From IMG/VR virus record IMGVR_UViG_3300045597_000172: a stretch of DNA of 34,652 nt; one strand, 5' to 3'. The notes beneath the pieces are model-generated. The model saw nothing but the letters and a program-made list of their open reading frames with translations. It had not been told where the DNA came from and did no database searches. Origin of the DNA: a virus. Its lineage: Duplodnaviria; Heunggongvirae; Uroviricota; Caudoviricetes. The translations under genes and the position numbers were made by a program. Numbering within the stretch: the first letter of the stretch is position 1; the number at the start of each line of letters is the position of its first letter. Below, piece after piece: positions 2,456 to 31,911 of this stretch.

Positions 2456-2693
2456 AAAACGTATCACTCCTCTTTATTTTTAAAATCAAACAAGTTTGAT
2501 CGAAAAAAAATTTAAACGAAAAAATTAGTGGATGAACACAGCATTAATTCGTTCAGTTAACATTGTAGCAGACCTTTTCAAAAAAGTATATGAAAATCAT
2601 CATAATTTGGTCACATTTGATAGAAAAAGCCAAATGCGTCGTCTACAATCCTTTAAATGAACCAGATTTTACAAAATTGGAGCAAAAAGGAAA

Positions 2694-2757: not shown

Positions 2758-5166
2758 TTATTTCACGCGCAAAACTTCTCCAACCGTTATCAAATTAGCA
2801 TTACGAATTCCATTCAATGATTGTAACTTAGCAGTTGTCGTTCCATAACGATAAGCAATTACCGACAAACTGTCACCACTACGAACCGTATAATAAGTCT
2901 TTGACGAATTTGATGATGTCGTATTTGGTGAAGTAGTAGACGTCGAACCCGAAATTACCAGTTTCTGTCCCACACTGATCAGGTTAGCATTCTTGATATT
3001 ATTCGTTGATTGCAACTTAGCAGTTGTTGTCCCATACTTAGCGGCAATTCCAGACAAAGTATCCCCACTTTTTACAGTATAAGTAACTGTGTTGGATGAA
3101 GTATTTGATTTTGTAGTTGAACTACTCCCAGAATTATTAGTCGTATTTGACGATGTATTAGTCTTAGCGGTAGTCGAACCTGAAACCGTCGTTGTTTTAG
3201 TACCGACTTTAAGAACTTGTCCAACACTAATCAAATTAGCGTTCTTAATTCCATTCCATGACTGCAATTGAGAAACTGTCGTACCGTAATTCTGAGCGAT
3301 TGTCGATAAATTATCCCCACTCTTAACCGTGTATGTCACGTTTGAAGTCGTAGTTGTTGGTGCAGTAGAAACAGTTGTCGTCGTTGTCTTAGTACCAACT
3401 TTAAGAACCTGTCCAACATTGATCAAGTTAGCATTACGAATACCATTCCACGATTGCAATTGCGAAACAGTCGTACCATAACGTTGTGCAATTGTTGAGA
3501 GATTATCACCGCTCTTAACCGTGTAAGTTACATTTGTAGTTGTAGTAACCGTTGTCGTAGTCGCAGTTTTATTCCCCGTATTACTTGTAGTCGTATTGGC
3601 AGTTGTGTTACCAGAACCAGTTGTTGTGGTAGTTGTAGTAGTCGAACCAGTCGTGTTTGTTGTCGTACCTGTATCTGCACTAACTAATGTATTTGTACCC
3701 GCGCTATCTTCTAAGAATCCAGAATAATCAATCGAAACATCCAAATTACCTGAATAGTATCCAGCTGGTAACTTAGCCGTTGATGCATCTTGCCAAGCAC
3801 CATACGATGTATTTCGTAAACTAGATGACGATGGTGAATACAAATATTGTGCGATCCAAGTTTTAGAAGATCCAACCGTAGCTGAAACCGCATCACGCTC
3901 AGTATAATAAAGACCCGTATATACGCCATGATTTGTATATCCTGCATTAGTCAAGACTTTCCAAAAATCATTTAAGTAAGTACCCTCATCTGAAACTTTC
4001 GTTGCATCAGCTTCCATATCAGCAATGATTAAAGTTTTTGTATTAACCCGGCTTGCTTTCAGAACACTTGCAAAATAAGTTCCCTCAGCAGTAGCCGTAG
4101 TCGCATTACCAAATTGAGCAAAATGATAAATATCAACATTCAAGCCGGCCGCATTTGCATACTTAACTTCCTGTAAGAAATATGGATTTGTATATGATGT
4201 ACCTTCAGTAGCCTTAACGATAATCGTTTTAACACCCAACGCCTTTAACTTATTAAAGTCATTTTGCGTCATTTCACCTTGATAAGAAGAAACATCTACT
4301 GCATCAACACGAGGACGACTCGTATCACCAATCGTCCAAGAATCAATCGATGGTGTTGCCAATAACGCTTGATAAGTTACAACATTCGGAACTACTGTCG
4401 CAACGGTACTCTTAGCACTAACTACAACATCTGTTGAAGTTGCACTACTTGTATTAGTAGACGTTGCCGCTACCGAACTGTTAGCCGTACTTGATGTATT
4501 TTCACTAGCTGCAACTGAACTAGCAACTGATGAACTTGCCGTACTTGCACTAGTAGAAGTCGTAGCACTCGCTGTACTTGAAACAGCCGTAGATCCTTGA
4601 CTAGACGCCACCGAACTATTAACAACACTAACGGCACTCGAAACTTTTGCAGTTGAAGAAACATCACTAGCTACATTCGAACTAGCTACATTCGAAGTTG
4701 TTTCAGAACTAGCCTTAGCTGCACTAGACGTTGCCGTAGAAGCATTCGTTACCGCACTGCTACTAGCAGTAGCACTTGATGAAACAGCACTTGAACTGCT
4801 CGAACTAGCACTATCGTTCGTAGAACTAACTGCACTAGCCGAATCCTGCTTAGTTGTCGTAGCATCACTACTCGTCGAAGTTGCAGCCGTACTTACCGCA
4901 CTCGAACTCGCACTAGCAGAACTTGCTTTTGACGAAGCACTACTTGAACTAGCACTCTCTGCTGAGCTACTAGAGCTAGAATTTGAACTTGAAGAACTTG
5001 ATGCACTAGAAGAAACTACACTTGACAAAGTCGAATCGGCTTTAACAGTATCAGCATGTACATTCATTACTGAATTAGTACCTAAAATTGCAGTTGCAAA
5101 CAATAATGATGCTAGAACCCCCACTGGTTTTGAAACCAAATTACTATTAGATTTACTAGAATTCAT
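2758..5166 (-). CDS. GH25 muramidase with four LysM domains (cell wall hydrolase, VirB1-like role likely)
   Basis: Signal peptide ending VHA-DT and a long Ser-rich linker. GH25 motifs DVSSYQG, IVKATEG, YHFA, IADME. Four YTV(K/R)SGDxLSxIAxxYGTT...N.I.NANLI.VG..L LysM repeats. Confidence 0.95.
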
Positions 5167-5306: not shown

Positions 5307-8300
5307 TTAAATTCCGATCGTCCGTCCAGTATCATTTCCCAAATGCGCTACCGAATTTGATTTAGAACTAGCTTGAGGTTTCCAAGTACCGTTCATCAAA
5401 TTAGAAGTGCTTTCCGAAATTGCGTTATGCGCTGAACTAACCGCCTTAGTATCATTAACGACCTTAGACGACAAGCCAGACTTAACGGCACTTTGCCGTG
5501 CAGTATCAAGATGAGAAGCTGCATTTTTAGCTTGTACCGAATCAGAACCATAACGAGACGTTGCCGAACTCAAATCATTCTGTGCATTATAAACAGAATT
5601 CATCGCATTGTCAGCCGTACCAACCGAAATTGATTTTCCATTCGTGCCACTACTCAACCATTGCGATTGCGGAGATCCACTCGAAACAGCTTGCTGCTTG
5701 TAATCACTCAATGCATTTGACTGCAAAGAACTCAAGTTGTTATTAGCTGTTTGCGCACGTTGACTCAACGTTTGATTATTTGGATTAGCAGATGCTAACG
5801 AATTAGCATTATTCGCCGTAGCAGTCGCATTTTGAATATCACCCATTTGTGACTGAACATTTTGCGCTGACATATCACTATTAACCGGAACATTAGTTGA
5901 TAAATCATTTGAAGTCGATTGACCAAGGCTCTGCGAATTATTAGAATCTCCAATCGAAGACCCTAACTGCGTAGCACGTGCGTTTTGAGTTTCATCACCA
6001 TTTCGATTATCACCCAAACTATTGCTCTGACTACTATCGCCTAATGCATTATTAGCAGTTGAACTCGAATCACCTAGCGTTGCACCGTTGTTAGAATCAC
6101 CAATTGAATTTTCAGCATTACTATCACCTAACGTTGCTCCATTAGTATTTGAATCACCCAACGAATTATTAGTGTTTGTGTCACCAGACAAACCGTTTTG
6201 ATCGCCCGTTCCATTTTGGCCAACACCCAATTCATCGGCTAAATGATCTTGTTGCATTGACGAATCAGCAATTGCCGCACTAGTTGTCGCAGCATTATCA
6301 CGATCTGCTAAGCCATTCGAATCTTGTCCAATGCCATCACTTGCCGAGCTACCCAAGTCATTTGCATTCACATCTGAACCAAGACTGTTCATATCACCAT
6401 TTTCATTAAGCTCATCACCAGCATTCTGCGAAGCCTGAGTCGTATCGTCCGAATTTTGATCCAAATTGTTTTCATTTGAATTCTGGTCTTCCAAACCATT
6501 CTTAGTCAAACCGTTTTGGTCTGTATCACCCTGATCATTTTGTGTCAAGTTGTTCTGATCTTGGTTTAACCCATTTTCATCACCATCTTGATTTGTTAAA
6601 TCATTAGCATCAGAATTCGTTAATTGATCTTGGTTAGCCTCAGTTAATTCATCATTCTTACCAATTGAATTCAAATCGCCAGCATTTTGATTAGAATCTG
6701 TTGGTGAATAACTTGTATTCTGCAAACCATTTTGATTCTGATCCTTTGCTTGTTCTTTAGAAGCATCCGTCAAACCATTGCCATTTGCAGTTTTTTCAGG
6801 ATTCTGCAAGTTATTGTTACGATTATTATCAGACTTATTAGCAGCATTTTGACTCTTGTTATTATTGTTAGTCAAAGCAGAAGTACCCGTGTTAGTACGA
6901 GATGCCGCATTACCAAGCTTGTTAGCACTCGAATTTGAATTTTGACGTGAATTGTTATTCTTTTCTTTCTCTGATTCCTTACCAGTTTCTTTATTTGCAC
7001 TCGTACTTCCTAACGAACCAGCACCTTTAGCTAACGAACTCAAACCGGTTGTACCACCAGCTAACAAAGCACCCATACCAGCCGTTTTAGCTAAACCAGC
7101 CGCATTATTAGCCCAAGTATTGTCGGTATTAGAGTTCTGCATCACAGCACCACGCGTACCAGAAGAACCTTGTCCTGATAAATTACCGAAGGTTGCCATA
7201 ATCTTGTTTACAGTTTCTTCAACCAAACTTGACATTGAAGCAACCATTACCCCACGATATCGCAATAATAAGTAAGCTAACCACAACAAGAACACACCAT
7301 ATGCAATGTTTGCAGCTCCTTGAATTGTCGTTAATGAAGCACCCGATGCCAAACGACCAACCGAAGTATCACCTTGCATACTAATCAAATTAACAAATCC
7401 ACTTGTGATTCGACCACTGATTAAAGAATCTGAATACTCCGCTACCGAAATATACGCAAGTTGAGCAATTAAGTACATTACTGCGGATCCAAAAACACCA
7501 ATGAACAATCCAGCTAGAACTGAAATAAATTGAACACCGCCCTTTAAACTCATCAAAGCGGTCTGGAATGTTGCCATCGTAATTGCTGGAATTGATTGAA
7601 TGATTGTCTTCAAAACTTCTAACAAATAACCAACTACCAACAACGCCAATCCAACCATCATCCCAAATGCCCAAACCAGATTACCAGTCGAAACAATCCC
7701 GGTACCAACTAAAACCGTCGCACGATGTTCAGGTTGCGCAACATCATTTGAAAGATTTTCAGTATCCGCAATTGTCATCTTATCATCCGAAGCAGTTGTT
7801 AACATATAAGCATAAGTACCTAACGTTGATAAACCACCAGATGTATCAGTACCATCCATCGTGTTAGAATTTGGACGGAAAGTTGTACCGGTAATAATCG
7901 CAGAATTATTAGCCGAATTAACCCGATTAGTACTGTAATAATTATACTTACCTTTAACTAATTCCGCCGATAAATCAGATGCTCCGTTTGAATCTTTACT
8001 ATTAGCAGCTTTCGCAGCTTTTCTAATTGCCGGATCAGCCGCACTTGCATAATCAGCAGCCGTAATTGACGAACCGGATGTCCAAGACTTCAAAACAGAC
8101 TTCGCATAATCATCAACACTTGTATTACCAGAACTATTAGAATTTGATAACGCATCACCATTATTAGAAACAGTATTATACAAACTGCTTAATCCATTAA
8201 TTCCGGCACCCTTGTAATTAATTGATAAAATCTGACTATGCGTTAACGGGATAGCTTTTTTATTATCAAATGAAGAATTCAATGTTACATCACTTGGTAA

Positions 8301-9368
8301 ACCTAAACGTGAATTCATAACCCAGTTATTATAATCGACATACGCACCATACACCGCATAATTTGGTACTGAATTACTTTGTGTCTCAAACGCATCCTTA
8401 ACATTATCAACCGTTGCACCGAAGAATGCTAAACCAAAGACTGGTAAAACTGTCCAAACAAACAAACGTTTTAATAAATTTGCAAAGACGTTAAGTAACG
8501 CACGTCCCGGACCAATGTGAGCAGTACCGGTACCAATCGTCACGCCCATTGCCGCTAACGCAATTGACACGGCTAAAATAATACCGCAAATTGCCCAGCC
8601 AACACCTTTCATCAACTGATAAAGTTGGTAAACAGCATTCGCTAAACCAGAAAAGACAGCATTTGAAGAACCTGCTCCATATAATGCCCAGTTAATCGGA
8701 TTAATTGCTGAAAGAATTGATAATGCAATCTTAAATAATGATTCCGCAGAATCAAGCACAAAGTAAGACAACTGCATTACCCAACCGCCAACTTTGTCAA
8801 TTACACCAACACTCGTAAAACCAGACTTAACTGGTTGATCTAATCCAGTTGACTGTAATGCGTATGCAAATCGGCCAGCAACTTTATAAGCATCCCCGCT
8901 ACCAGAACCGGCACCTCCAATTAAAGAATTATAAGAAACTGTCCATGACGAATTGTTATTCTTTTCCCAGACATCAGTATTACCATTCCCCATAAATCCC
9001 CAAACGTTTAAATAATCGCCACCGGAAATTGCAGTTTTGATTGTTGCCTGATCTTTCTTACTCGAACTATCAGTATCACTTGAAGATGACTTATTCGTAC
9101 TTACTGCGGACTCACTTAGTTGTGATAAAGCTGTATTCCAAGCCGACGCGTCGTCAGACGTCGAACTAGAGCTACTACTTGAATCATCACTACTGCTACT
9201 CGATGACGAATCAGTAGTATCAGCATGAACTGTCGTAACTGCACCCGGAACAACACTCTGAATCGCAAAAGTAGAAGCAGCCACACAAACTGTTACTAAC
9301 GGCATCAATAACAGCCACAATAAAGCTAAATGTCGGAATTTTCGTGTTTTTGTACTCGTATCAATCAC
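5307..9368 (-). CDS. Large polytopic membrane protein, VirB6/TcpH-like conjugation channel component with a long N/Q/S/D-rich C-terminal tail
   Basis: GTG start with AAAGGAG RBS. Two clusters of hydrophobic helices are separated by a large soluble loop and followed by ~600 aa of low-complexity tail. It lies between a VirB4-like gene and a cell wall hydrolase, the usual Gram-positive T4SS order. The family call rests on topology and context. Confidence 0.7.
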   Translation of the reverse strand: MIDTSTKTRKFRHLALLWLLLMPLVTVCVAASTFAIQSVVPGAVTTVHADTTDSSSSSSSDDSSSSSSSTSDDASAWNTALSQLSESAVSTNKSSSSDTDSSSKKDQATIKTAISGGDYLNVWGFMGNGNTDVWEKNNNSSWTVSYNSLIGGAGSGSGDAYKVAGRFAYALQSTGLDQPVKSGFTSVGVIDKVGGWVMQLSYFVLDSAESLFKIALSILSAINPINWALYGAGSSNAVFSGLANAVYQLYQLMKGVGWAICGIILAVSIALAAMGVTIGTGTAHIGPGRALLNVFANLLKRLFVWTVLPVFGLAFFGATVDNVKDAFETQSNSVPNYAVYGAYVDYNNWVMNSRLGLPSDVTLNSSFDNKKAIPLTHSQILSINYKGAGINGLSSLYNTVSNNGDALSNSNSSGNTSVDDYAKSVLKSWTSGSSITAADYASAADPAIRKAAKAANSKDSNGASDLSAELVKGKYNYYSTNRVNSANNSAIITGTTFRPNSNTMDGTDTSGGLSTLGTYAYMLTTASDDKMTIADTENLSNDVAQPEHRATVLVGTGIVSTGNLVWAFGMMVGLALLVVGYLLEVLKTIIQSIPAITMATFQTALMSLKGGVQFISVLAGLFIGVFGSAVMYLIAQLAYISVAEYSDSLISGRITSGFVNLISMQGDTSVGRLASGASLTTIQGAANIAYGVFLLWLAYLLLRYRGVMVASMSSLVEETVNKIMATFGNLSGQGSSGTRGAVMQNSNTDNTWANNAAGLAKTAGMGALLAGGTTGLSSLAKGAGSLGSTSANKETGKESEKEKNNNSRQNSNSSANKLGNAASRTNTGTSALTNNNNKSQNAANKSDNNRNNNLQNPEKTANGNGLTDASKEQAKDQNQNGLQNTSYSPTDSNQNAGDLNSIGKNDELTEANQDQLTNSDANDLTNQDGDENGLNQDQNNLTQNDQGDTDQNGLTKNGLEDQNSNENNLDQNSDDTTQASQNAGDELNENGDMNSLGSDVNANDLGSSASDGIGQDSNGLADRDNAATTSAAIADSSMQQDHLADELGVGQNGTGDQNGLSGDTNTNNSLGDSNTNGATLGDSNAENSIGDSNNGATLGDSSSTANNALGDSSQSNSLGDNRNGDETQNARATQLGSSIGDSNNSQSLGQSTSNDLSTNVPVNSDMSAQNVQSQMGDIQNATATANNANSLASANPNNQTLSQRAQTANNNLSSLQSNALSDYKQQAVSSGSPQSQWLSSGTNGKSISVGTADNAMNSVYNAQNDLSSATSRYGSDSVQAKNAASHLDTARQSAVKSGLSSKVVNDTKAVSSAHNAISESTSNLMNGTWKPQASSKSNSVAHLGNDTGRTIGI

Positions 9369-9390: not shown

Positions 9391-11433
9391 TTATTTATCA
9401 GCACTAGACATTAAGGATCCTTTAGGATGTTCACTTAATAAATCGCCGTGCCGTGTTCCCATATTCATATCAAGCGCAAACAACACGTTATCAATTCCGC
9501 GTGACAAATAATAAATACTATCACCATACTGAGAACCACCATAATCAATAATAGCAGATATCAAACCCTGCGGTAAGTTTTGCTGAATCAACTTTTGATA
9601 TTTAGCAATAACAGGTTTATTAAAACCGCCAAGCATCGTCCAATCAGCAAAATCCAGTTTATTAAATGCAGCATCGTCTAAACATTTATCGGGACTATCA
9701 TATAAGAAAACTAATCGTACTCCGCGTTGCGTCAATTCATCAAACAAATCGGATGTGTATGTTTTAACCGAATCAGACAACTGATCAACCCCGTGTAAAA
9801 TTACGACATCCCGTTCATCTAACGTATCAGTTGCATAACGAACAGCATTTAAAAATTGCGCCATTGCAATACCAACTCCACGTTTTCGTAAACTAGAAAA
9901 ATCATAAACCACTTGCGGTGACTGACTAGCCGAATCAACATCATCATTCGTGACAACATTAAATAAATCCCCATTATCACGTAACATCATATTAAATGCT
10001 GATCTGACACGCTCAATTCGTTCTACTAATCGTTGATTATTCTGTTCACTAGCAGCATCCATTGCTTGGTTTAAATAAGCCACAAACTTGTCTAACTTTG
10101 GATACTGAAAATGAGGTAAACCGACAAGCTTTAACTTTTCAGCATTTTCTTTAGGATTATCAACCAACATATCTTCATCTTTATAATACTGCTGAATAAT
10201 ATTGGTAAATACATCATTCAAATCAACATCATCAACCGATGGCGAAATCTGCTTAATCATCAACTGTAATTTCTGGGCATGCGTTGGAAAGTATGAGTAT
10301 TGACGACTCTTACGTGTATCAGTTCCAAATAACTCAAATGGATTAATCGCACCCTCATGTTCACCACCATTTAACGAAACAACTGTTGTAATATCACTCA
10401 AATCAGCACCAAGATTTTGTGGTTTCGCACCATTCAAAACTAAATGAATAACCCGATGATTATTAATTAACGCAGATTGTGCCAAACGAACACCTAACAA
10501 TGTTGTTGCACGCGTACCAACATCAAATTCATTTGCAGTAACATGTAACATTGTCGGTTTCGCTGAATGTGCCAAAACAATCCGTGTATCATAATTGTCC
10601 AAATCCATTAACACCGCAGTATTATTTACATCACCAACCATTTGACCAATATAGTCACCATTTGGATCAGTAATGCCACGCGTTAAGACTTCATAACCAC
10701 CTGCATATTCTGAACTTGTCGCCATTGGATGATTTCCCAATTGAACATCCGCTGTTTTAAGTAAATTCTGGAAATCATTGAATTGTTGGCCCTCATAAAC
10801 TTCAAAATGTAAGCCATCAAAATGCGTTGAAATCCACTGAGAATAACGAAAAATAGCAACATCTAAATCATGCAACGAACGTGCTGTAATCAATATTTTA
10901 TACTCAGTCGAGCCATACATATCACCATCTGCTAAATCATTAGCAATGATCTGATTATCATTCTTACGGGTACCAACCTTACGTTGCTGCGCATTACCTG
11001 CCGCCGTATCACCTTCCATCGAAGTCGATGAATCAGCTTTACCTTGTTTGTCAGAAGTCCATGATTTTGATTTGTTCTCTAACATATCAAAAAATTGTCC
11101 GTGAGCACCAAAGACCGCAGTTGGACTTTTTTCACCATCCCGATCATTTAAAATATATGATTGTGGAATTAATAAAATCTTCCAAAAGGGCGTCAGTGCA
11201 CGGTCGGCTTGATCAGACTCAACCAACGTCAAAATCCGGCCGTATCTGGAACCATATCGAAAATAATTTGAATAAAATCGATAACCACCACGAGAAACAA
11301 CATCACGTAAATCATTGTCACGAACAAATAAATGTTTGTCACGTTCCTTTTGTTCACGCTTTAAACGTTTGCGCGTTGCCGCATCCATTTTTGCTGTTTG
11401 ATCATGATCGTTATTACGATGAAATAACGCCAT
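9391..11433 (-). CDS. VirB4-like conjugation protein with degenerate Walker motifs
   Basis: VirB4-type landmarks occur in order: DPNGDYIG...VLMD, RVIHL, INPFE, VVYDFSSL, VVILHGVDQL, RGVRLVF. There is no GxxGxGK(S/T) and no hhhhDE. Operon context supports the call. Confidence 0.7.
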   Translation of the reverse strand: MALFHRNNDHDQTAKMDAATRKRLKREQKERDKHLFVRDNDLRDVVSRGGYRFYSNYFRYGSRYGRILTLVESDQADRALTPFWKILLIPQSYILNDRDGEKSPTAVFGAHGQFFDMLENKSKSWTSDKQGKADSSTSMEGDTAAGNAQQRKVGTRKNDNQIIANDLADGDMYGSTEYKILITARSLHDLDVAIFRYSQWISTHFDGLHFEVYEGQQFNDFQNLLKTADVQLGNHPMATSSEYAGGYEVLTRGITDPNGDYIGQMVGDVNNTAVLMDLDNYDTRIVLAHSAKPTMLHVTANEFDVGTRATTLLGVRLAQSALINNHRVIHLVLNGAKPQNLGADLSDITTVVSLNGGEHEGAINPFELFGTDTRKSRQYSYFPTHAQKLQLMIKQISPSVDDVDLNDVFTNIIQQYYKDEDMLVDNPKENAEKLKLVGLPHFQYPKLDKFVAYLNQAMDAASEQNNQRLVERIERVRSAFNMMLRDNGDLFNVVTNDDVDSASQSPQVVYDFSSLRKRGVGIAMAQFLNAVRYATDTLDERDVVILHGVDQLSDSVKTYTSDLFDELTQRGVRLVFLYDSPDKCLDDAAFNKLDFADWTMLGGFNKPVIAKYQKLIQQNLPQGLISAIIDYGGSQYGDSIYYLSRGIDNVLFALDMNMGTRHGDLLSEHPKGSLMSSADK

Positions 11434-11501
11434 TGAAAATCACCTACTCTTTTTATATTAGCTAATAACATTGCAGTCTAATTGTACCATACTATCACAA
11501 C

Positions 11502-11527
11502 AAAAAAAGCCCCGATCCTATCGGGGC
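11502..11527 (-). terminator. Intrinsic terminator between the PrgI/TcpE-like and VirB4-like genes
   Basis: GCCCCGA-TAGGA-TCGGGGC followed by 7 T on the minus strand. Confidence 0.8.
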
Positions 11528-11596
11528 CTCGCAAATTGTGATGATTTTGCAACATATTGTGACGATCAACATCTTGATGTGCCAAAATACATTTTT

Positions 11597-12550
11597 TTAA
11601 TTATTTTTCTTATTATCATCCTGATAATCATCAAAAATCGAATTCAATAATTTCTCAACTTGATACGGCTCATTCAACGGCAAGCCATTCGTATCACGTC
11701 GTAACGGCTCATTTGTCAAGACCGTTGCCGACTTCAAATAATTATTAGTTGCACTCGCCGCCGAATTTGAAATTGTTTTCGCAACCATCAAGGCATTATC
11801 AGGTGTACCACGAACAATTAAATACTGACGAATCATTGAAAAATTAGTACCAACTGTATCGCGTAGAACCTGACCCTGTTTCTTAACAATTTGTCTTAAT
11901 CCGGGACTATCAATTTGTAAATTGTGTAATTGATCCAACTTGGATTGAATCTGAGTATGCACATCCTGCGTAGACGCTTGCGTTATTAAAGTCAAACCCA
12001 CCATTGACGGTAAGTTCTTATAAATTGTACGAGCATCTTTAATTACATTGTGTTGATCTTGTTCGAAAATCATTGAACTAGCATTACCAACAACATCAAA
12101 AACAATCCCGACTTCACCGCCTGTAAAGTGTAACATTCCATCTTCAGTTACACCATCTTTACTTTTAAGTCCTAGAAAATTACGTAACCGCGCACCGTCA
12201 TCTAAAAGTCCAGTTTTAACATTCCGGCCATTTGGAGACCAATATTGAAACGCAACTGGTAAATAACTCATCTTATAATTCAACGTCTTTGTACGCGTTA
12301 ATAACGACCAATAACAGCCAATAAATCCAACTGTAAACAATAACCACCCGAAAAAGCCACCATACCGAACAACGGATCTTGAAAACAAAACCGCATAAAG
12401 AAAAATAGCACCCATCAAATAAATAAATGTTGCTAATGTAATTGGCTTTTTAGCAATTGACAAACTCGTACTAGAACCCAATTGAATTTGTGAATCTAAT
12501 TGCGACTTTGCTAAACTTGTCCGAATCGCATAAGCATTTCTTACTGGCAT
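11597..12550 (-). CDS. PrgI/TcpE (VirB3-like) conjugation membrane protein with soluble C-terminal domain
   Basis: Two N-terminal TM helices followed by a soluble domain (EDGMLHF..GEVGIVFDVVG...RQYLIV), directly upstream of the VirB4-like gene. Confidence 0.6.
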   Translation of the reverse strand: MPVRNAYAIRTSLAKSQLDSQIQLGSSTSLSIAKKPITLATFIYLMGAIFLYAVLFSRSVVRYGGFFGWLLFTVGFIGCYWSLLTRTKTLNYKMSYLPVAFQYWSPNGRNVKTGLLDDGARLRNFLGLKSKDGVTEDGMLHFTGGEVGIVFDVVGNASSMIFEQDQHNVIKDARTIYKNLPSMVGLTLITQASTQDVHTQIQSKLDQLHNLQIDSPGLRQIVKKQGQVLRDTVGTNFSMIRQYLIVRGTPDNALMVAKTISNSAASATNNYLKSATVLTNEPLRRDTNGLPLNEPYQVEKLLNSIFDDYQDDNKKNN

Positions 12551-12593
12551 CTACTAAACCACCTTTCAATTTATCAAACACAAAACTTTAATT

Positions 12594-12767
12594 TTATGGT
12601 CTGCATAACTCATTTGCAAACTTCAAGATTTCTTCATCCGTACCTTTTTTCAAAACATGTTTTGGCCACGCTTGAACTTCCGGTGGTAATCGAAGAATTG
12701 ATTGTGCTAACGATTCCTTTGCAGCCTCAATATCTTTAATTGTAAAACGTACTTTATCTTCACTCAT
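12594..12767 (-). CDS. Small hypothetical protein (57 aa)
   Basis: Below the ORF-track cutoff. MSEDKVRFTIKDIEAAKESLAQSILRLPPEVQAWPKHVLKKGTDEEILKFANELCRP, with RBS AGGAGAG, filling the gap in the operon. Confidence 0.75.
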   Translation of the reverse strand: MSEDKVRFTIKDIEAAKESLAQSILRLPPEVQAWPKHVLKKGTDEEILKFANELCRP

Positions 12768-12793
12768 TAAAAAATCTCTCCTATCATGTCATG

Positions 12794-14629
12794 TTAACGA
12801 CTCGACCCTGACCAACGTCCAACTTCAATTTCAGCACTACCCTCTTTATCATTTGGCAAATCAATCGCCATTTGACCCTTAACACGCACACCAAGATCTT
12901 TTAATGACGGCCATTTGATAATGACTTCACTTATTTTAGAAACTAAATGTTCATCAATCCGTCGCCGGATTTCACGTCCACCACCATTAGTAGTTTCATT
13001 TGAACCTACATGTTCTTTAACAATGAAACGTTTAACATCTTGATCAATGTGCAATGTCACACCATGCTTTTGATAAACCAATTTTGATAAATCATGAAAC
13101 TGTGCATCACAAATCTTATTACGAGTCGATTCACCAATCGGTGCAAACGGAACAATCTGATCAAAACGTCCTAGTAATTCAGACGGAAATTGCGCTTGCT
13201 TAGATCGCAAAGCACGAGTAATCAATTTCATATAAGCTCGTAACATTTTATGTTGACGTTCACGTTCTTCAGCATCGGTACGATTAACATCTTGTACATG
13301 TCCATACATTGACTGCAAATCTTCATACACATTCGCCCCGGCATTAGTCGTAAAGATAATGTACGTATCCTTAAAACTAATTTCACGACCATGTTCATCA
13401 GTTAACCGCGCATCATCCAAAACTTGCAGCATCAACTTAGAACAAACCGATGCAGCCTTATCAATTTCATCTAACAAAATAATTGAACTCGGACGTTCCC
13501 ACACCGCCTCAGTCAAAGAGTCTTTCAACAACGTAACCGAACGTGGTTCCGAAAATTCACTCATATCAAAACGAATCATGTTAGATTCAGAACCATATAA
13601 GACTTGCGACATCGTTTTGGCCAAAGCTGTTTTACCAACACCAGTTGAACCAGTAAACAAAAAAGAACCACGCGGACGAGTACGATCATTCAAATCGGCA
13701 ACCGAAACATATAACCGTTCTGCCATTGCCTGTACCGCCAATGTTTGATCAAACACCTTAGCATTTAACTGTTCTTCAACATTATCAACATCAACTTGAT
13801 AATCAATATCCGTACCAACTGATGCCTTAATCATTTTTGCTAACAGCTTTTCATTCAACGGATCGTTAAATGTCCGATGCCAACCACCCATTGCATCCAA
13901 TAAACGTAACGATTTACGTGGCTGATGCTGACTAGGCAACGCCCGATCAGTAACTTCCACAATCCGACGCAACAAATGATCATCGACGTATTCACCCGGA
14001 AAACCAACTGCCATATAATTTTTAAGAGCTTTTAAAGTATCATCAAATGACAATTCCGGTAAAGAAATTCGTTCCAAACGTTCAGTTAAAGCTTCGTTAG
14101 GCCTAACATACTTATTGTATTCTTCGTAAGTTGTTGCCACAATAATCCGCAAACCACGCGCACCTGAATTTGCTAACACAGGCTTAATTGCTTCCATTGC
14201 GGCAGGACTAATTTCCATAATTAAATGAAATTCATCCATGAATAATACCAATTCCTTATTATGTTTCTTTTGATATTCAACAACTTCATCAACTAACTTT
14301 GTCAACCGACTACCCATTTGTAAAGTACCATCAGCACCATTATCTGAACTTGTCATCAAAGACAAACGCACTTCGTAATAATCACGGTTCGTATCACGTT
14401 CCGCCACACCATACGCCACCGTAGTCTTACCAGTTCCGGCTTCACCGACCAAGGCAACGTTTGAAATTTCAATTCGATTGAGTGTGGCCAAAACCAGATT
14501 GACAATATCTTCACGACCAACCATTTTACGTTTTCCGGGATTAACAACCGGTTGCAAATATTTATTCATCATGGGAAATTCAGACGTGGGCGTACTGGAT
14601 TGACTTACAGATTTATTTTTATCTACCAT
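12794..14629 (-). CDS. ClpB/ClpC-type double AAA+ ATPase lacking N-terminal Clp repeats
   Basis: NBD1: VGRE, LVGEAGTGKT, LFMDEFH, ATTYEEY, ALTERL. NBD2: FTGSTGVGKT, RFDMSEF, LLDEIDKA, LQVLDDARLTD, FTTN, ELLGRFD, GGREIRR. Confidence 0.93.
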   Translation of the reverse strand: MVDKNKSVSQSSTPTSEFPMMNKYLQPVVNPGKRKMVGREDIVNLVLATLNRIEISNVALVGEAGTGKTTVAYGVAERDTNRDYYEVRLSLMTSSDNGADGTLQMGSRLTKLVDEVVEYQKKHNKELVLFMDEFHLIMEISPAAMEAIKPVLANSGARGLRIIVATTYEEYNKYVRPNEALTERLERISLPELSFDDTLKALKNYMAVGFPGEYVDDHLLRRIVEVTDRALPSQHQPRKSLRLLDAMGGWHRTFNDPLNEKLLAKMIKASVGTDIDYQVDVDNVEEQLNAKVFDQTLAVQAMAERLYVSVADLNDRTRPRGSFLFTGSTGVGKTALAKTMSQVLYGSESNMIRFDMSEFSEPRSVTLLKDSLTEAVWERPSSIILLDEIDKAASVCSKLMLQVLDDARLTDEHGREISFKDTYIIFTTNAGANVYEDLQSMYGHVQDVNRTDAEERERQHKMLRAYMKLITRALRSKQAQFPSELLGRFDQIVPFAPIGESTRNKICDAQFHDLSKLVYQKHGVTLHIDQDVKRFIVKEHVGSNETTNGGGREIRRRIDEHLVSKISEVIIKWPSLKDLGVRVKGQMAIDLPNDKEGSAEIEVGRWSGSSR

Positions 14630-14647
14630 CCTACAATCTCCCCGTCA

Positions 14648-15358
14648 TTATTTGAAAAATGGTTCCTGAACCGAAGTTCCATCAGCAACATTTTCACTTT
14701 TTGCCGTTGGCTGAATTTCAACATCTTCGGATTTCGCAAAATCTTCAGCATGATATTCTGATTGATTTTTTTCAACCAATTTATCATGTTCGGCATTCAA
14801 TAAAGATCCCGCATCAAAATCAGCAGAATCTGTATTTTCAAATTCATCATTAGATTCAGAAGAATTTTCTGCTTCATTATCTTTGATAACCGCAACTGCC
14901 TTTAACCTTGGAACTTTAGGAACTTCAGGTGTCTGAGAAACGTCTTCTGAGGACAAGTTCGGATCATCTTCTGGTAGATTGTCCATCTCCGAAGTCTCAG
15001 ACCGTGTCTCTAAACTCTTTTCAGTAACCGTTTCTTCACCCGGCAAACTTGCGACGTCGTCAGAATTAGAACCTTTAATGTTTACAACTTCGTCATGCGA
15101 ACCCTTATCTTTATCTACCTTATCCAAACCAAGTGCATCACGAACTTTCTGGTCTGTAATTTCCTTTTTTTCAGGCACTTGGATTTTAGGAGCATGATAC
15201 GCAACTTCATCCGCTGCACGTTGATGATCAAAAAATCCATCAATTTTTGCTAACATTTTTTCATACTCAGTCGCTGAAAAAACTAACAAATCACCAGTTC
15301 GTAAAGCATGATCGTAACTACCATGCAAAACATTTTTAACATCATTTAATGATTCCAT
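14648..15358 (-). CDS. Hypothetical protein with acidic, probably disordered C-terminal half
   Basis: 236-aa ORF with AGAGAGG RBS, co-oriented with and 18 bp upstream of the Clp ATPase. Confidence 0.8.
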   Translation of the reverse strand: MESLNDVKNVLHGSYDHALRTGDLLVFSATEYEKMLAKIDGFFDHQRAADEVAYHAPKIQVPEKKEITDQKVRDALGLDKVDKDKGSHDEVVNIKGSNSDDVASLPGEETVTEKSLETRSETSEMDNLPEDDPNLSSEDVSQTPEVPKVPRLKAVAVIKDNEAENSSESNDEFENTDSADFDAGSLLNAEHDKLVEKNQSEYHAEDFAKSEDVEIQPTAKSENVADGTSVQEPFFK

Positions 15359-15478
15359 TAAAAAAACCTCTCTTTTTCAATTTTTGATTTTAAATCTCAT
15401 GTTTATAATAACAAATTAGAAAATAATAAGCCAGCTAAGATTGATGCAATTCAATCAATCATCCGGAAATTAGCCAAA

Positions 15479-16018
15479 TTATTTCAACCAATCTGAATAA
15501 TCAACCTCTTCTTGTGACTGTTCATCAGCTGGACTCACAACCTCATTCGCAACTAACTCAGAAGTTCTCGTACCTTTTACACCAAACTTTTGTTCAAACT
15601 TCTTTTTAGTCCGCCAATCATCTTCCGCAATAAATAAGCAACAATTTTTGTCAGTTGTTTCATTTCCATCTTCGTCAAAATAATAAGATTCAACATTCCG
15701 ACCATTAACTGCAATTCGACTAATAAAAACAAATCCAAAAACTGCAACCGTATCCGGCACACGCTTTAAAGTCGCTAACGACTTTGCCATCGATGGAAAC
15801 AACCGTTTCGCTTGCGAAAGCCCCTTATCACTCAACGTTATCAATTTGTCATCCGTTTGTTCTAAACAACCCTGCGTTACTAAACTCTTCCAAATACTAA
15901 AATCTAAATTATAATGATCTAACACGGATTGCGGAACCGGATGCTGATAAAATCGTAACGAAAGATAAAGTCCTCTTCGCAACTGTTTTTCAGTTTTTGT
16001 CATTTTACTAGTCGTCAT
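15479..16018 (-). CDS. Hypothetical protein, possible N-terminal winged-helix
   Basis: Likely start MTTSKM at 16018 after GAGGGA. WKSLVTQGCLEQTDDKLITLSDKG resembles a wHTH wing (weak). Confidence 0.7.
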   Translation of the reverse strand: MTTSKMTKTEKQLRRGLYLSLRFYQHPVPQSVLDHYNLDFSIWKSLVTQGCLEQTDDKLITLSDKGLSQAKRLFPSMAKSLATLKRVPDTVAVFGFVFISRIAVNGRNVESYYFDEDGNETTDKNCCLFIAEDDWRTKKKFEQKFGVKGTRTSELVANEVVSPADEQSQEEVDYSDWLK

Positions 16019-16029
16019 AAAAACATCCC

Positions 16030-16551
16030 TCATTTATTTAATAATTCATCACGTTTTTTCATAAATTGTGCTTCCGTTATTACGCCATCATCAAACAATT
16101 TTTTATACTTTGAAATTTCATCAGCGTCACTAACGACACTCGCATTATTTAAACCATTTGACCATTGTAATAACGCCGCATCAACATCTTTTGAAAATTG
16201 TTTTGCTTCCTTCACAAAAACATTTCTAACAAATGTATTATCCGCACCATTCGTCACGATCAAGTTGCAAAACCAAATCCCACTAGAATGCGAAATCGCA
16301 TTTACCGCTCTTAATGGAATATCTGAAATCTTCAACCCATAAACCACCCCAGCATCCATGAAAATAATTCGCCGTGGCGTTAACACTATCAAGACCGTAT
16401 TCCAACCCCCAGCAAAACCCCTAACTGCCGCTAAAGGTTCCTCATTGTCCGGCAACATGTCAGCTAACGCTCGTAACTCTTTTTTTACAAATGCAAAATC
16501 CGTATAGCCATGCCGATTCAAACACTGAACCACGCTTTTATATTTGCTCAT
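16030..16551 (-). CDS. Bacterial PH-domain protein with C-terminal SHOCT domain
   Basis: L...EEPLAAVRG...LIVLTPRRIIF...IPLRAVNAI fits the bPH domain. ADEISKYKKLFDDGVITEAQFMKKRDELL fits SHOCT. Confidence 0.88.
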   Translation of the reverse strand: MSKYKSVVQCLNRHGYTDFAFVKKELRALADMLPDNEEPLAAVRGFAGGWNTVLIVLTPRRIIFMDAGVVYGLKISDIPLRAVNAISHSSGIWFCNLIVTNGADNTFVRNVFVKEAKQFSKDVDAALLQWSNGLNNASVVSDADEISKYKKLFDDGVITEAQFMKKRDELLNK

Positions 16552-16591
16552 CTGAAAAATCCTTTCTTATCAAATCAAAATTGACTTACGA

Positions 16592-18604
16592 TTAACGTTC
16601 CATTCCACTTAACGTTTTCAAATGTCGTTCAACCAAGGTTTCTTGCTGGCGTTCATTTAAAACGTAACCATCACGTTCAATAGCGGGGTCAGGACGCGAA
16701 GTAACAGGCGTATCATCGGGTGTTTGCAACAACTTAAACTGCTTGTTCAAATCCTTTTGCGCATACTGTAACCACGCAGGATCAACCTGTCCCGTCTGCT
16801 TAAAATAATCGTGAGCCGACAATAACTTTTCAGCTCGCTGCGAAATACGTTTCCGCAACGCCAAATTAACCTCAAAATTCATAGAACCCGCATCCAGAAT
16901 CTCGTGAGCATCAACAGAAATCAAATCAGGATCATCACGCATTAATTTACGATCATAAATGGAATTCGTTTCAGGCGGAACTGGTAAAATACCATCATCC
17001 GCAGTCTTAAACTTCAAATCTTTAGTGCCTAATCCGCCCCACGAAGTTGCGTCCATTTCATAATCTTCAAGTTCTTGCAAATAATCAGCTAACCAAATTC
17101 TTTGCTGTGGACTCAAGCCATCCGGTTTAGGGTGCTGGTTACGGGTCAAGTTGGTGGCAATTAACTCACCTTCTTGGTCCGACACCGTCTTTTTAACAGC
17201 ATGGACAGTATGACTATCTAACGGATAATGTGGATCCGCTTGTGCTTTTCGTAATTCTTTATAATCCGGACTTTGCGTAACTGGTCCATCATATTGTTTA
17301 GCTAAGCCTTGCATAATATCCGGACGGGCTAAAAGACGTTGCACATAATGATCTCTTAATCCGGGAGCACCCAGTTTTGGCAATAACTCTTTACGATGCT
17401 GCAATAATACCTGACGACGATTATCAAGTTGCACTTGACGTGCTCGATAAATCGCATCAACACGCGGACGCTGATAACCCCGATATTTTTCAACAATCTG
17501 CATTTGATGTTGATACTCATAAGCCATTGCCTCTTTAACCGGTTTTGATTCCGTTACCGCTTGATTAACCGCATCGACTTGATTATAATGTTTCAACTCT
17601 TTACGAATTAACGTTGCACGTTTCATTGCTCTAATCTGACGCCGACTTCGTCTTTGTCCTTGACTTAACGTATGACTTCTAGTATCACGCCGGCCAACGT
17701 CACGCCAATCCTGCTGTATTTTTTCTTTCAAATTATCACGCTGACGTTCAGACAAAGTTCGCTGATCAAACATTTGCAAATTCATCACATATTCATCCAG
17801 TGACTGCCGATCCAAACGTAACGCACTTTGATATAATTCATGTTCCAACAATTTGCGCTTGAACTTTGCATTTTGCTGGGTGGTTTGTGCCACCGTTTTT
17901 AACATCTTAGTATTATTCAAATGCGGTCCATTTTGTAATAAATGCATTTCAATCCCGTCAATAACTGATTTTTTCAACTGCTGATTCAAAAAACCACGGT
18001 CATCCTTAACTTTCGGATCACGATCCCATAAACAAACGTGAGCATGAACCTGTTCGGTATCGATTTGAATCGCACCTACAATTTGAGGATTATGCATCGT
18101 CGTCTGATTAAGCATTGATTTCATACCATCTTGAATAGCTTCTCGTAAACGTTGCTGATCTAAATTTCCATGTAAATCTCCACGTAATACTGGCTCTTTG
18201 ACACTGTTATTCAAAACACCATGGTCTTTTAAATAACTAGTTCGAAATGAAATTACCATTTTACGAACCGTTCCGCCACGGTCATACGCACCTTGACAAT
18301 CGTCTGCTAATTTATCCTGCTCTTGACGTGATAAACTTGCATTTTCTAAATCAAAACCAATTCCAGCATAATGTAATCGATGATTCAAAATATTAACCGC
18401 GTCCTGATCTTCAGGCGAACGCAACTTTGAAAGTAACTCTAAATAATCAGCTTGCTGGTCATTCGATGTAACCAAAGGCTCTACTGCATAATCACGCAAA
18501 ATATAACCTTTGATAAATGCTTTTGTAAATTTTTTGGCTTTACCGGCCGATGTTGAACTCTTGTTAGTAAATTCGTTTCTAACAACGATGTCTGAACCAT
18601 CCAC
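16592..18604 (-). CDS. Conjugative relaxase, MobL/MobP2-like
   Basis: GTG start with GAGGTG RBS. N-terminal IVVRNEF, candidate catalytic Tyr in GYILRDYAVEP, KMVISF..YL..HG, and HUH motif GAIQIDTEQVHAHV, followed by a helical C-terminus. Confidence 0.85.
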   Translation of the reverse strand: MDGSDIVVRNEFTNKSSTSAGKAKKFTKAFIKGYILRDYAVEPLVTSNDQQADYLELLSKLRSPEDQDAVNILNHRLHYAGIGFDLENASLSRQEQDKLADDCQGAYDRGGTVRKMVISFRTSYLKDHGVLNNSVKEPVLRGDLHGNLDQQRLREAIQDGMKSMLNQTTMHNPQIVGAIQIDTEQVHAHVCLWDRDPKVKDDRGFLNQQLKKSVIDGIEMHLLQNGPHLNNTKMLKTVAQTTQQNAKFKRKLLEHELYQSALRLDRQSLDEYVMNLQMFDQRTLSERQRDNLKEKIQQDWRDVGRRDTRSHTLSQGQRRSRRQIRAMKRATLIRKELKHYNQVDAVNQAVTESKPVKEAMAYEYQHQMQIVEKYRGYQRPRVDAIYRARQVQLDNRRQVLLQHRKELLPKLGAPGLRDHYVQRLLARPDIMQGLAKQYDGPVTQSPDYKELRKAQADPHYPLDSHTVHAVKKTVSDQEGELIATNLTRNQHPKPDGLSPQQRIWLADYLQELEDYEMDATSWGGLGTKDLKFKTADDGILPVPPETNSIYDRKLMRDDPDLISVDAHEILDAGSMNFEVNLALRKRISQRAEKLLSAHDYFKQTGQVDPAWLQYAQKDLNKQFKLLQTPDDTPVTSRPDPAIERDGYVLNERQQETLVERHLKTLSGMER

Positions 18605-19661: not shown

Positions 19662-19800
19662 GTCAATTACTCGTCACTAAAGTAACAAGCTTGTAACTCA
19701 CACTAACTTAGTAGTCCAAACGTCTTAACGACTCCTACTTACGTGGTTACATCATCGGATGATTGACAGCACCCGTTTAAGCTAAAGAATATATCCTTAA
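19662..19800 (-). ncRNA. TnpB omega RNA (reRNA) scaffold; the guide would be the flank starting at 19661 (UAUUUUGACGGUAAAACAGC)
   Basis: Non-coding stretch between the tnpB stop and the right end, with an upstream GTCAA complementary to the terminal TTGAC and the subterminal hairpin. This matches established TnpB locus architecture. The 5' end is uncertain and may overlap tnpB. Confidence 0.7.
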
Positions 19801-20996
19801 CTTGTTAATTTTGTGAAACTAGTTGGTTTCTTAGTAACCCAATTAGTACCTAATGATTGAATGTTCATTGCTCCAATTCGATCATCATTACTACGATAGC
19901 CACAATGTTTACAACAATATTCATGCGTAACATGATTACGAGCATCTTTATCAATCATGCCACACTTCGGACAGCGCTGACTGGTATAATGCGCATCTAC
20001 TTTAAGCACAATGGAACCTTTCAGTTCAGCTTTATAAAGTAAGAATTGTTCCAATTGATAAAACGCCCAGCTAACTTGTTCGTAACGTCTAGTCTTAACT
20101 ACTTTTTCAGTTGCAAAACGAACATTCGTTAAATCTTCAATCGTAAATATCGTACCAGTACTGTATCTATCAACGAGTGTCTTAGAAATCTGATGATTAA
20201 TGTCACTCATCCAGCGGTTTTCTCGTTGACCAATTTTCTTTAATCTACGTTTTGCCGATTTAGTACCTTTAGCTTGCAATTGTTGACGTAACTTTTTAAA
20301 TTTACGTCTTTTACTAATAATCGCTGAACCCTTAACAAAAGAAGTTTTGCCTTTTTCATCATAACAAGTAGCCAGAAATCTTAAACCTCGATCAATTCCA
20401 ACTACATGTTTAAGATTATCCTTACTAAATTCAGAAGTCTTTACAGTACAAGCCACATGCAAAAAATAATGTCCGCACAGTTTAACTAATTTAGCAGTAC
20501 CAAGCGTGCCTGTTTTAAGGTAGTTTTCAAAACCTTTAGCCGTATAATTAATTTTTTGTCTAGTAGCTATCGTATTAATCGATAGTTGATCTTTAACGAA
20601 TGACCAATCTCTAACAGAGACCAAATCACATTGCGGACGATTAAACGAAACCGGTTTTTGTAACCAAGTTAAATCACGTTTAATCCTATAATTCGTATTT
20701 GAATCCGTGTCATGATATTTAAAAGGCTTCTTGCTTAATTGGGTATCAAGTGTTTTATATCTAGCTAAAACAGTCTTAAAAACCGATTGCGTCATTTGTG
20801 ACTTTAAACCAAACCTTTCTCTAATCAGATGATAAAGATGTGATTGTAATCCAGATTGTCTAGGTTTAAAGTTGTTTTCAAAATAATAATTAGACACCAA
20901 ATTGCAAGCAAGCTGATATTGTTTCATTGTAGTTTCAAGTACGTTAGTTTGCTCAGTAGTTGGATATAAACGTAATTTTAAGGTAACAGTTGCCAT
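19797..20996 (-). CDS. tnpB: RNA-guided endonuclease TnpB
   Basis: N-terminal KLRLYPTTEQ. RuvC-I VVGIDRG, RuvC-II FTIEDL, zinc finger TSQRCPKCG...CKHCG, RuvC-III NDDRIGAMNI. All three acidic catalytic positions are present. Confidence 0.96.
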   Translation of the reverse strand: MATVTLKLRLYPTTEQTNVLETTMKQYQLACNLVSNYYFENNFKPRQSGLQSHLYHLIRERFGLKSQMTQSVFKTVLARYKTLDTQLSKKPFKYHDTDSNTNYRIKRDLTWLQKPVSFNRPQCDLVSVRDWSFVKDQLSINTIATRQKINYTAKGFENYLKTGTLGTAKLVKLCGHYFLHVACTVKTSEFSKDNLKHVVGIDRGLRFLATCYDEKGKTSFVKGSAIISKRRKFKKLRQQLQAKGTKSAKRRLKKIGQRENRWMSDINHQISKTLVDRYSTGTIFTIEDLTNVRFATEKVVKTRRYEQVSWAFYQLEQFLLYKAELKGSIVLKVDAHYTSQRCPKCGMIDKDARNHVTHEYCCKHCGYRSNDDRIGAMNIQSLGTNWVTKKPTSFTKLTS

Positions 20997-21866: not shown

Positions 21867-21890
21867 CCCCAGCACTCCCTTTTTTAAATG

Positions 21891-21920
21891 AAATAAAAAC
21901 CCGTGACAACTCGTCACGGG
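21891..21920 (-). terminator. Intrinsic terminator-like hairpin upstream of sortase
   Basis: CCCGTGAC-GAGTT-GTCACGGG followed by TTTTTATTT on the minus strand. Confidence 0.7.
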
Positions 21921-22979: not shown

Positions 22980-23050
22980 TAAATTTCCTTCTTTCTGTTC
23001 TTTCCATCCAAGCAATTCATAACTACGCAAAAATATGTGCAATCGGCCGA

Positions 23051-23716: not shown

Positions 23717-23751
23717 ACTTGATACCAACCCTTTCTATTTGTGTTTCATTT

Positions 23752-31490: not shown

Positions 31491-31642
31491 CTAATTCACC
31501 TTTCTACCACTGCACCTGCGACTATCACCACTACAATCGGCGATGTTCCAAAGCCAGTCACTGTACCCCAACCACATCGCATATCTCACGCAGAATCACT
31601 GTTGCGCCACGATAACCACAAAAAATTTAAGATCGTTATTTT

Positions 31643-31798: not shown

Positions 31799-31863
31799 TC
31801 TAACACCTCCCATAATAATATCTATATTATATATCATTTGATAAAGTAATACTATCATAAAAT

Positions 31864-31891: not shown

Positions 31892-31911
31892 GAATATTCC
31901 TAAAAATCATC

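Follow-up and report, generated by a model that had tools for sequence, protein, structure and literature searches.

A VirB4 homologue without its nucleotide-binding motifs and a co-occurring Clp-like ATPase in a type IV secretion lineage of Gram-positive bacteria

Gene content of the locus and its VirB4 homologue

VirB4 serves as the universal marker by which type IV secretion is recognised and as the backbone of its phylogeny, and the ATPase activity of the protein is regarded as indispensable. Here we describe a conjugation locus in which the VirB4 homologue has lost its nucleotide-binding motifs and shares its gene region with a Clp-like ATPase. The locus lies in a stretch of 34,652 nt (the Caudoviricetes record IMGVR_UViG_3300045597_000172), which we call the window and whose positions serve as coordinates throughout. 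The same element recurs in several metagenome assemblies, including a 107-kb JGI contig on which the window occupies ~32-67 kb. A dead VirB4 combined with a dedicated Clp-like ATPase is a type IV secretion system (T4SS) variant previously undescribed in the literature that we searched; its mechanism is one that we infer. All genes of the region are on the minus strand, and those that concern transfer are as follows:

16592-18604, minus strand: MobL/MobP2-type relaxase, 670 aa, recognised by domain searches
12794-14629, minus strand: Clp/Hsp100-type two-ring AAA+ ATPase (P0002), 611 aa
12594-12767, minus strand: open reading frame of 57 aa between the Clp-like and VirB3-like genes, as called in the public record
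11597-12550, minus strand: VirB3-like membrane protein (P0003), 317 aa, with a two-helix transmembrane hairpin and a soluble alpha/beta domain
11506-11530, minus strand: terminator-like hairpin of 11 pairs (6 GC) with a T tail, within the 163 bp that separate HG-virB4 from the VirB3-like gene
9391-11433, minus strand: VirB4 homologue, here named HG-VirB4 (P0001), 680 aa, recognised by fold and sequence homology
5307-9368, minus strand: VirB6-like polytopic membrane protein (P0004), 1353 aa, assigned by position and topology as a lead only
2758-5166, minus strand: GH25 muramidase with four LysM repeats, recognised by domain search
21198-21917, minus strand: sortase, presumed to anchor the LPXTG adhesin
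2-2467, minus strand: repetitive surface protein, N-terminal 822 of 2437 aa, the rest being on the matching public contig

Read along the minus strand, the MobL relaxase is followed by small proteins, the Clp-like ATPase, the VirB3-like protein, VirB4, the VirB6-like protein, the GH25-LysM muramidase and the sortase-anchored adhesin, and then, outside the window, by a VirD4-type coupling protein. This inventory is the usual set of a Gram-positive conjugative T4SS. The muramidase is the cell-wall hydrolase of the transfer apparatus and the analogue of VirB1, and the surface protein, whose C-terminal LPXTG anchor is found on the matching public contig, is likely the mating adhesin. The VirB6-like protein has a long low-complexity C-terminus. 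As for P0003, the best fold matches of its soluble domain are weak and fall on the N-terminal region of VirB4 (Foldseek E ~0.01, probability 0.96; Atlas template modelling (TM) score 0.57); judging by this model, it may be a VirB3 fused to a domain resembling the VirB4 N-terminal one.

P0001 is a true VirB4 homologue. The top Foldseek matches of its AlphaFold2 (AF2) model, built from 25 homologues (predicted local distance difference test, pLDDT, 79), were to TrwK/VirB4 of R388 over the whole length (E ~1e-15), and its C-terminal domain matched the VirB4 of T. pseudethanolicus with a TM score of 0.75-0.77. VIA-align gave a Z score of 31.7 against the latter structure (4ag5_A; root-mean-square deviation 3.0 over 352 residues), followed by DndH (22.6), HerA (20.3) and TrwB (15.4). 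BLASTP aligned P0001 with a Walker-intact VirB4 of 641 aa from a Lactiplantibacillus plasmid at E 4e-20, hhalign matched the P0001 family profile to the same protein with a probability of 99.8% (E 1e-28), and homology searches by tblastn reached annotated Priestia VirB4 genes. Neither Pfam nor NCBIfam assigned a family to P0001, P0003 or P0004: for P0001, no Pfam family rose above threshold, the NCBIfam model of mycoplasma VirB4 (VirB4_plasma) matched partially and below threshold (E 3e-4), and phmmer against the sequences of the PDB returned nothing, even at E 10. The protein has the two domains of the family, an N-terminal one and a RecA-like C-terminal one with a helical bundle, and also its genetic context, with VirB3-like and VirB6-like membrane proteins, a relaxase and a coupling protein.

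The residues that should bind and hydrolyse the nucleotide are absent from this fold. BLASTP sets VGTRATT (305-311) opposite AGMGKST, which puts Ala309 where the Walker A lysine should be. The AF2 model is consistent with this register: a helix whose usual first residue is that lysine begins here at 309. The register proposed by hhalign lies 13 residues earlier and is likewise without a Lys or Ser/Thr in place. At Walker B, the beta-strand 543-547 (VVILH) ends in His547-Gly548 where Asp-Glu is expected; the register against the canonical YMNIDEGE was set by eye, the hhalign alignment ending at residue 533. The sensor "TQ" position is occupied by Tyr578-Asp, and the NPFE motif is kept.

These losses extend to the whole family. 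None of 25 aligned homologues (29-80% identity, from Firmicutes and Actinobacteria) has a GK[ST], and D542, H547, G548, R573 and Y578 are invariant among them, in a family whose P-loop region varies in length and sequence. When 1.84 billion representatives of 50%-identity clusters were searched exhaustively with the profile, the family comprised 169 clusters at E<=1e-30. We inspected the best 150 matches: a P-loop was found at the expected position in none of the ~125 full-length representatives, most of which show hhhhHGx[DE] with a conserved acidic residue at 550, and not before rank 146 of 150 did a P-loop turn up at the right position, among matches that are no longer full-length and belong to ordinary VirB4. 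The ratio of nonsynonymous to synonymous substitution rates (dN/dS) of HG-virB4, computed against a 95%-identical relative, is 0.027 at a dS of 0.89. The family-wide loss together with this ratio indicates that the motifs were lost neither by chance nor through decay. On these sequence grounds, the clade that we name HG-VirB4 keeps the whole VirB4 fold and is a predicted pseudo-ATPase under strong purifying selection.

The initial annotation of the window, made from its letters alone, had already called this protein a VirB4 and had considered it dead from four stretches, IVLAHSAK, VGTRATTLLG, VVILHGVDQL and LYDS, which are indeed present in the minus-strand translation of 9391-11433 (at 285-291, 305-314, 543-552 and 577-580). 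Both calls were borne out, the first by the structural and sequence matches given above, the second by the recurrence of the loss in 25 of 25 homologues and throughout the ~125 cluster representatives.

Another VirB4 with degenerate nucleotide-binding motifs, RvhB4-II, is reportedly a conserved paralogue in the Rickettsiales vir homologue T4SS, where it stands beside an intact RvhB4-I. We know of no other degenerate VirB4. In contrast with RvhB4-II, no second VirB4 was found with HG-VirB4, and a Clp-type ATPase co-occurs instead. The canonical VirB4 proteins of Gram-positive systems (PrgJ of pCF10, TraE of pIP501, TcpF of pCW3, ConE of ICEBs1, and 4AG5) share with HG-VirB4 a detectable homology, the two-domain fold, the length class (~640-680 aa) and the neighbours, namely a VirB3-like protein upstream, a VirB6-like protein downstream, a hydrolase and an adhesin. 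The difference is that neither the Walker A lysine nor the Walker B Asp-Glu is present anywhere in the HG-VirB4 clade. A December 2025 review states that Gram-positive VirB4 homologues keep all signature motifs, and a word search of that text gave no mention of Clp, AAA+ or "degenerate" (PMC12857230). No Clp-like component is listed in a published survey of T4SS classes, nor is the pairing of a dead VirB4 with a Clp-like protein described in the literature searched, which left most subscription journals outside its scope, so that a prior description is possible.

The Clp-like ATPase and its co-occurrence with HG-VirB4

P0002 contains the Pfam domains AAA_2, AAA and ClpB_D2-small, and its closest PDB sequences are ClpB and ClpC (E ~1e-55). 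Both rings carry Walker A and B motifs (GEAGTGKT/FMDEF and GSTGVGKT/LLDEIDKA). Residues G65/K68/T69, D132/E133, G332/K333/T334, D387/E388 and R488 are invariant, and 20-23 orthologues keep both Walker A/B pairs, the sensor-1 residues (ATT, TTN), the arginine fingers (R184, R488) and sensor-2 (GGGR). The gene has a dN/dS of 0.052 at a dS of ~0.9. P0002 is hence an Hsp100-derived double ring that most likely hydrolyses ATP, as far as its residues tell.

Several parts of an Hsp100 protein are missing from this double ring. P0002 begins directly at the first nucleotide-binding domain, its alignment to ClpB setting in at residue 157 of the latter, and is therefore without an N-domain; ~38 residues replace the ~165 of ClpB (400-565) that form the end of the D1-small domain and the coiled coil of the M-domain. 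The D1 pore loop KYRG has become G[ST]V[QE]M[AG], or G[ST]V[QE]MA.RL over a longer stretch, in the P0002 family, with the tyrosine changed to Gln/Glu and followed by an invariant methionine, and the D2 pore loop GAPPGYVG has been lost through a 12-residue deletion (HMMER alignment to ClpB; 20 of 20 orthologues). A ClpP-docking loop of the IG[FL] type was not found in P0002, its sole [ILVM]G[FL] tripeptide being a VGF at 208, in D1. Against the equivalog cut-offs, P0002 scores 247 bits of 993 for ClpA, 238 of 1232 for ClpB and 244 of 885 for ClpV/TssH. Compared with ClpB, ClpC and ClpA, it shares the two AAA+ rings and the D2-small domain, lacks the N-domain, the M-domain, the D1 tyrosine, the D2 GYVG and the IGF loop, and scores 4-5 fold below the cut-offs.

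AAA+ ATPases from general chaperone families are dedicated to secretion machines elsewhere, ClpV/TssH in type VI secretion (T6SS) and EccA in type VII secretion (T7SS). ClpV is a two-ring Hsp100 whose N-domain binds the substrate and which threads VipB. P0002 also has two rings but neither the N-domain nor the pore-loop tyrosines, and both its score (244 against 885 bits) and its domain make-up deny it membership of the ClpV family.

Some P0002 orthologues (P0096, 983 aa, for instance) contain a LAGLIDADG intein within the D2 P-loop, between GVGK and T. Such intein sites are typical of proteins whose active site must be kept. For many actinobacterial orthologues, for example in Streptomyces, Actinomyces and Parvibacter, the match is split in two within an open frame of 960-1560 aa.

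The two proteins occur together. P0001 and P0002 have their eight best plasmid matches on one and the same set of plasmids: pGS01 of Rhodococcus fascians, one Streptomyces plasmid, pGKT2 of Gordonia and five staphylococcal plasmids of 55-65 kb. Identities on the first three are 31-33% for P0001 and 38-42% for P0002, and plasmids of E. faecium come next in both lists. In chromosomes and assemblies the picture is similar: all 15 genomes picked solely for holding HG-VirB4 have a full-length P0002 orthologue (E 1e-60 to 1e-138), with housekeeping ClpB/ClpC reaching just ~1e-35 through D2 alone. These genomes span Evansella, Paenibacillus, Arthrobacter, Nocardiopsis, Kribbella, Pseudarthrobacter, Streptomyces, Promicromonospora, Plantibacter, Actinomyces and Parvibacter, together with metagenome-assembled genomes (MAGs) labelled Lachnospiraceae, Eubacteriales and Muribaculaceae. 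As a control within the family of Nocardiopsis, neither gene was present in any of 120 other genomes (121 with the index genome). Among 201 Streptomyces genomes, seven have both genes, one has HG-VirB4 only (a case that was rechecked), none has the Clp-like gene only and 193 have neither (Fisher p = 3e-12, a value that overstates independence, the elements being related). An Actinomyces MAG has two copies of HG-virB4 and two of the clp-like gene, each on a matching contig. Co-occurrence of HG-VirB4 with the Clp-like ATPase is near-obligate across Firmicutes and Actinobacteria.

The arrangement of the genes is looser than their co-occurrence. When on one contig, the two are usually on the same strand and 13-25 kb apart, within a total range of 1.4-250 kb. 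The VirB3-like gene is directly upstream of HG-virB4 in ~70 of 91 searched sequences and the VirB6-like gene directly downstream in ~73 of 91; the trio is found in ~70 of them. In Ligilactobacillus equi and Kurthia, as in the window, the clp-like gene is just upstream of the trio. A gene annotated "AAA family ATPase" that adjoins HG-virB4 in Rhodococcus and Gordonia was considered as the Clp-like gene and discarded, being a UvrD-like helicase; the true orthologue is ~24 kb downstream. A structure prediction of the Clp-like protein (10-611) with the C-terminal domain of HG-VirB4 (262-658) scored 0.00 and counts neither way.

The description that the initial annotation gave of the Clp ATPase is accurate: it is 1361 bp upstream on the same strand, with both Walker A/B pairs intact and with neither N-domain nor M-domain. 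The linkage of clp to the VirB4 gene is moreover conserved across homologous elements (15 of 15 genomes, the same eight plasmids, and seven of the eight Streptomyces genomes with HG-VirB4).

Energy supply, proposed mechanism and alternatives

The element has a further candidate motor. A VirD4-type gene (PF02534/PF12696) follows the adhesin gene ~5.5 kb beyond window coordinate 1, on the public contig (L094:7732-14800). It is in three pieces collinear with a coupling protein of 1292 aa from S. aureus (residues 106-559, 557-867 and 866-1105), with the Walker A motif TRAGKGQT in the first piece and the Walker B motif YMLDEV in the second. A group II intron makes the first break (~L094:9417-12153; Rfam RF02004 E 9e-22, RF00029 E 3e-10, GUGCG at the junction). 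The second is an insertion of 514 nt (L094:13120-13633) whose flanks are collinear with the staphylococcal type IV coupling protein (867/866) and which had no Rfam match and no GUGYG at its border. Intactness of the coupling protein depends on the splicing of the intron and on the 514-nt insertion. The intron contains a reading frame of 684 aa with matches to Pfam DUF723, DUF4379, DUF7487 and, weakly, a DNA methylase, and not to a reverse transcriptase/maturase. In relatives, uninterrupted VirD4-like proteins of 1235-1530 aa are on the same contig or plasmid; in the Evansella genome, a search with PF12696 was negative for a coupling protein. Since the element has a VirD4 with Walker A and B, the Clp-like ATPase is not the sole candidate motor.

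The initial annotation had proposed a scaffold VirB4 served by a Clp unfoldase, a proposal to which an intact VirB4 elsewhere on the element would be fatal. No second canonical VirB4 was found in the ~55 kb read of the 107-kb contig, near the locus in five genomes, or on the complete pGKT2, pGS01 and S. aureus plasmid, and the same query on pELF2 matched no VirB4. A VirD4, by contrast, is present. What stands of the proposal is the dead VirB4 with a dedicated and conserved Clp-type ATPase; the unfoldase is weakened by the lost pore loops, and the idea that this ATPase powers the system remains an extrapolation.

We consider, with a probability of roughly 0.55, that the window holds the core of a distinct and widespread Gram-positive T4SS lineage in which VirB4 is structural and the work is split between VirD4 and the Clp-like ring. 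HG-VirB4 would form a structural hexameric platform beneath the VirB3/VirB6 membrane complex, and the VirD4 coupling protein would deliver the complex of MobL relaxase and DNA. The Clp-like double ring would carry out the ATP-dependent assembly, gating or recycling that is normally the task of VirB4 (and of VirB11 in Gram-negatives), probably by remodelling or docking onto subunits of the machine and not by polypeptide threading. Given that neither pore-loop tyrosine is left, we prefer this reading to one in which the ring unfolds the relaxase.

Such a division of work would have broader meaning. If it is true, a selected clade without catalytic residues (at least 169 clusters, in Firmicutes and Actinobacteria) implies that a ring of VirB4 can have a structural role alone, and secretion machines can swap motors between ATPase superfamilies, much as happened in T6SS with ClpV. 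The pore-loop-less Clp-like protein would also be a test case for how AAA+ rings can work.

A bolder joint claim, to which we give somewhat less than even odds, is that HG-VirB4 and the pore-loop-less Clp-like ring make up a separate mating-pair-formation class of monoderms, with a scaffold VirB4 and an essential, non-threading ATPase derived from Hsp100, and that this is the so far unrecognised apparatus of many plasmids and integrative and conjugative elements typed as non-mobilizable. Under that tentative claim, the members would be the staphylococcal 55-65-kb plasmids, actinobacterial catabolic plasmids, Streptomyces islands and part of the pELF plasmids.

Several observations weigh against a structural VirB4 whose work has passed to VirD4 and the Clp-like ring. 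That this ring replaces the energy input of VirB4 is something we infer from co-occurrence only. With the D1 tyrosine replaced and the D2 GYVG deleted, a classical threading unfoldase is doubtful, and the missing loops speak against the customary Hsp100 mechanism. The lone Streptomyces HG-VirB4 without a Clp orthologue (G172:C1:7029811-7031589) breaks the pairing; its locus may be a decayed element. In Streptomyces, Kribbella, Promicromonospora and Pseudarthrobacter the two genes, on the same contig and strand, are 70-250 kb apart (for example at 1.76 and 1.92 Mb of G131:C1) and must therefore belong to very large integrated elements or to two linked islands. In the window itself, the strong hairpin at 11506-11530, possibly an attenuator or the border of a transcript, parts the VirB3-like gene from HG-virB4, so a single operon is unproven. 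Finally, the search for a second VirB4 on the element's own contig covered ~55 of 107 kb.

The strongest of the alternatives, although we find it unlikely, is that the Clp-like protein is a conserved accessory, for instance a chaperone of the VirB6-like protein or of the giant adhesin, or else an establishment factor in the recipient, and that VirD4 alone powers a system in which VirB4 is structural. The VirD4-type protein with Walker A/B here and in relatives, the very variable distance between the clp-like gene and HG-virB4, the genome that has one without the other and the missing pore loops would all fit such a role. It accounts less well for a co-occurrence that is near-obligate over two phyla at just 28-46% identity, for the Lactobacillales and Kurthia forms, whose clp-like gene comes right in front of the VirB3-like and virB4 genes, and for the absence of a clp-like gene without HG-VirB4 from 321 control genomes (0/321).

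pELF2, a linear vancomycin-resistance plasmid of E. faecium (NZ_AP022343.1), bears on whether the module is a DNA channel. It carries the module at ~29.9-43.0 kb, in the order Clp-like / 1213-aa / 718-aa / LPXTG / VirB3-like / HG-VirB4, with the following positions on the plasmid:

31075-33024: Clp-like
40148-41014: VirB3-like
41029-42999: HG-VirB4

For the Clp-like protein, the near-identical copy on plasmid NZ_CP012462 has 28% identity to P0002 (E 5e-59). According to the study on the transfer of pELF2, the essential genes traC, traD and traG, an FtsK-type pair and a small membrane protein, are at 72.7-77.7 kb, in a region of 71.5-80 kb, the 30-43-kb cluster is outside the tra genes analysed, and a word search of that text gave no mention of Clp, AAA or Walker (PMC13492992). 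Our search of pELF2 found no VirD4 (TraG-D_C) match. With the essential FtsK-type genes 30 kb away, the pELF2 module may be accessory or work with another DNA translocase, which also counts against the division of work that we favour.

One could then suppose that the module is in general a device for mating-pair formation or for the export of surface proteins that stands beside a separate DNA translocase. The case of pELF2, and the hydrolase and adhesin genes that regularly follow the module, agree with this. We nonetheless regard it as improbable, for the module is joined to a MobL relaxase and a VirD4-type protein, with no FtsK, in the window element, on pGKT2 and on the plasmids from Rhodococcus and S. 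aureus, and a MobL relaxase, a coupling protein and the module are the ordinary make-up of a conjugative T4SS. pGKT2, which has only this transfer system and no FtsK-type protein, is reported to pass from a Gordonia donor into Gordonia, Rhodococcus and Nocardia (Jung et al. 2011, cited by PMC5640721). This transfer is the best available sign and suggests that HG-VirB4 systems work.

That HG-VirB4 may still be an NTPase through a non-canonical site (for instance His547/Asp542 with the acidic 550), in which case nothing would need replacing, is conceivable from the invariant D542, H547 and G548 at the former Walker B, the conserved acidic residue at 550, the kept NPFE and the invariant Arg573, but is also improbable, since neither register has a Lys or a Ser/Thr pair at the P-loop, family members differ in the length and sequence of the P-loop region, and no RecA-type ATPase is known to us to work without the P-loop lysine.

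Plasmid typing and flanking genes

The lineage takes in clinically relevant plasmids, pELF2 among them, and seems to be invisible to standard plasmid typing. Four plasmids (NZ_CP150776.1, NZ_CP012462.1, NZ_AP022343.1 and NC_018580.1) are typed by MOB-suite, in PLSDB, as non-mobilizable or mobilizable only; the same four are listed as carrying a relaxase, a coupling protein and the HG-VirB4 T4SS. Many such plasmids are classed by typing tools as non-mobilizable or merely mobilizable, so that the potential for transfer in staphylococcal, enterococcal and actinobacterial plasmids may be underestimated.

Two assignments of the relatives to known plasmid groups were tried and dropped. The staphylococcal plasmids are not of the pWBG4 family, as pWBG4 has a MobC-type relaxase and det genes and these plasmids have MobL. 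The E. faecium matches are not pMG1/pHT-beta plasmids, one of them being pELF2 itself (NZ_AP022343) and another carrying a near-identical cluster. A megablast of 9391-18604 against the plasmids of PLSDB gave no close match at the DNA level, and a look-up of the 197-aa open reading frame at 33937-34530 returned no record.

The other genes of the window are the following:

24009-26015, minus strand: RecD-like helicase
23051-23728 and 21945-23042, minus strand: two unknown proteins
19797-20996, minus strand: TnpB insertion
16030-16551, minus strand: small protein with bPH and SHOCT domains
15479-16033, minus strand: small protein, 184 aa
14648-15358, minus strand: small protein, 236 aa

The last three fill the interval between the relaxase and the clp-like gene (14648-16551) and are kept in close relatives only.

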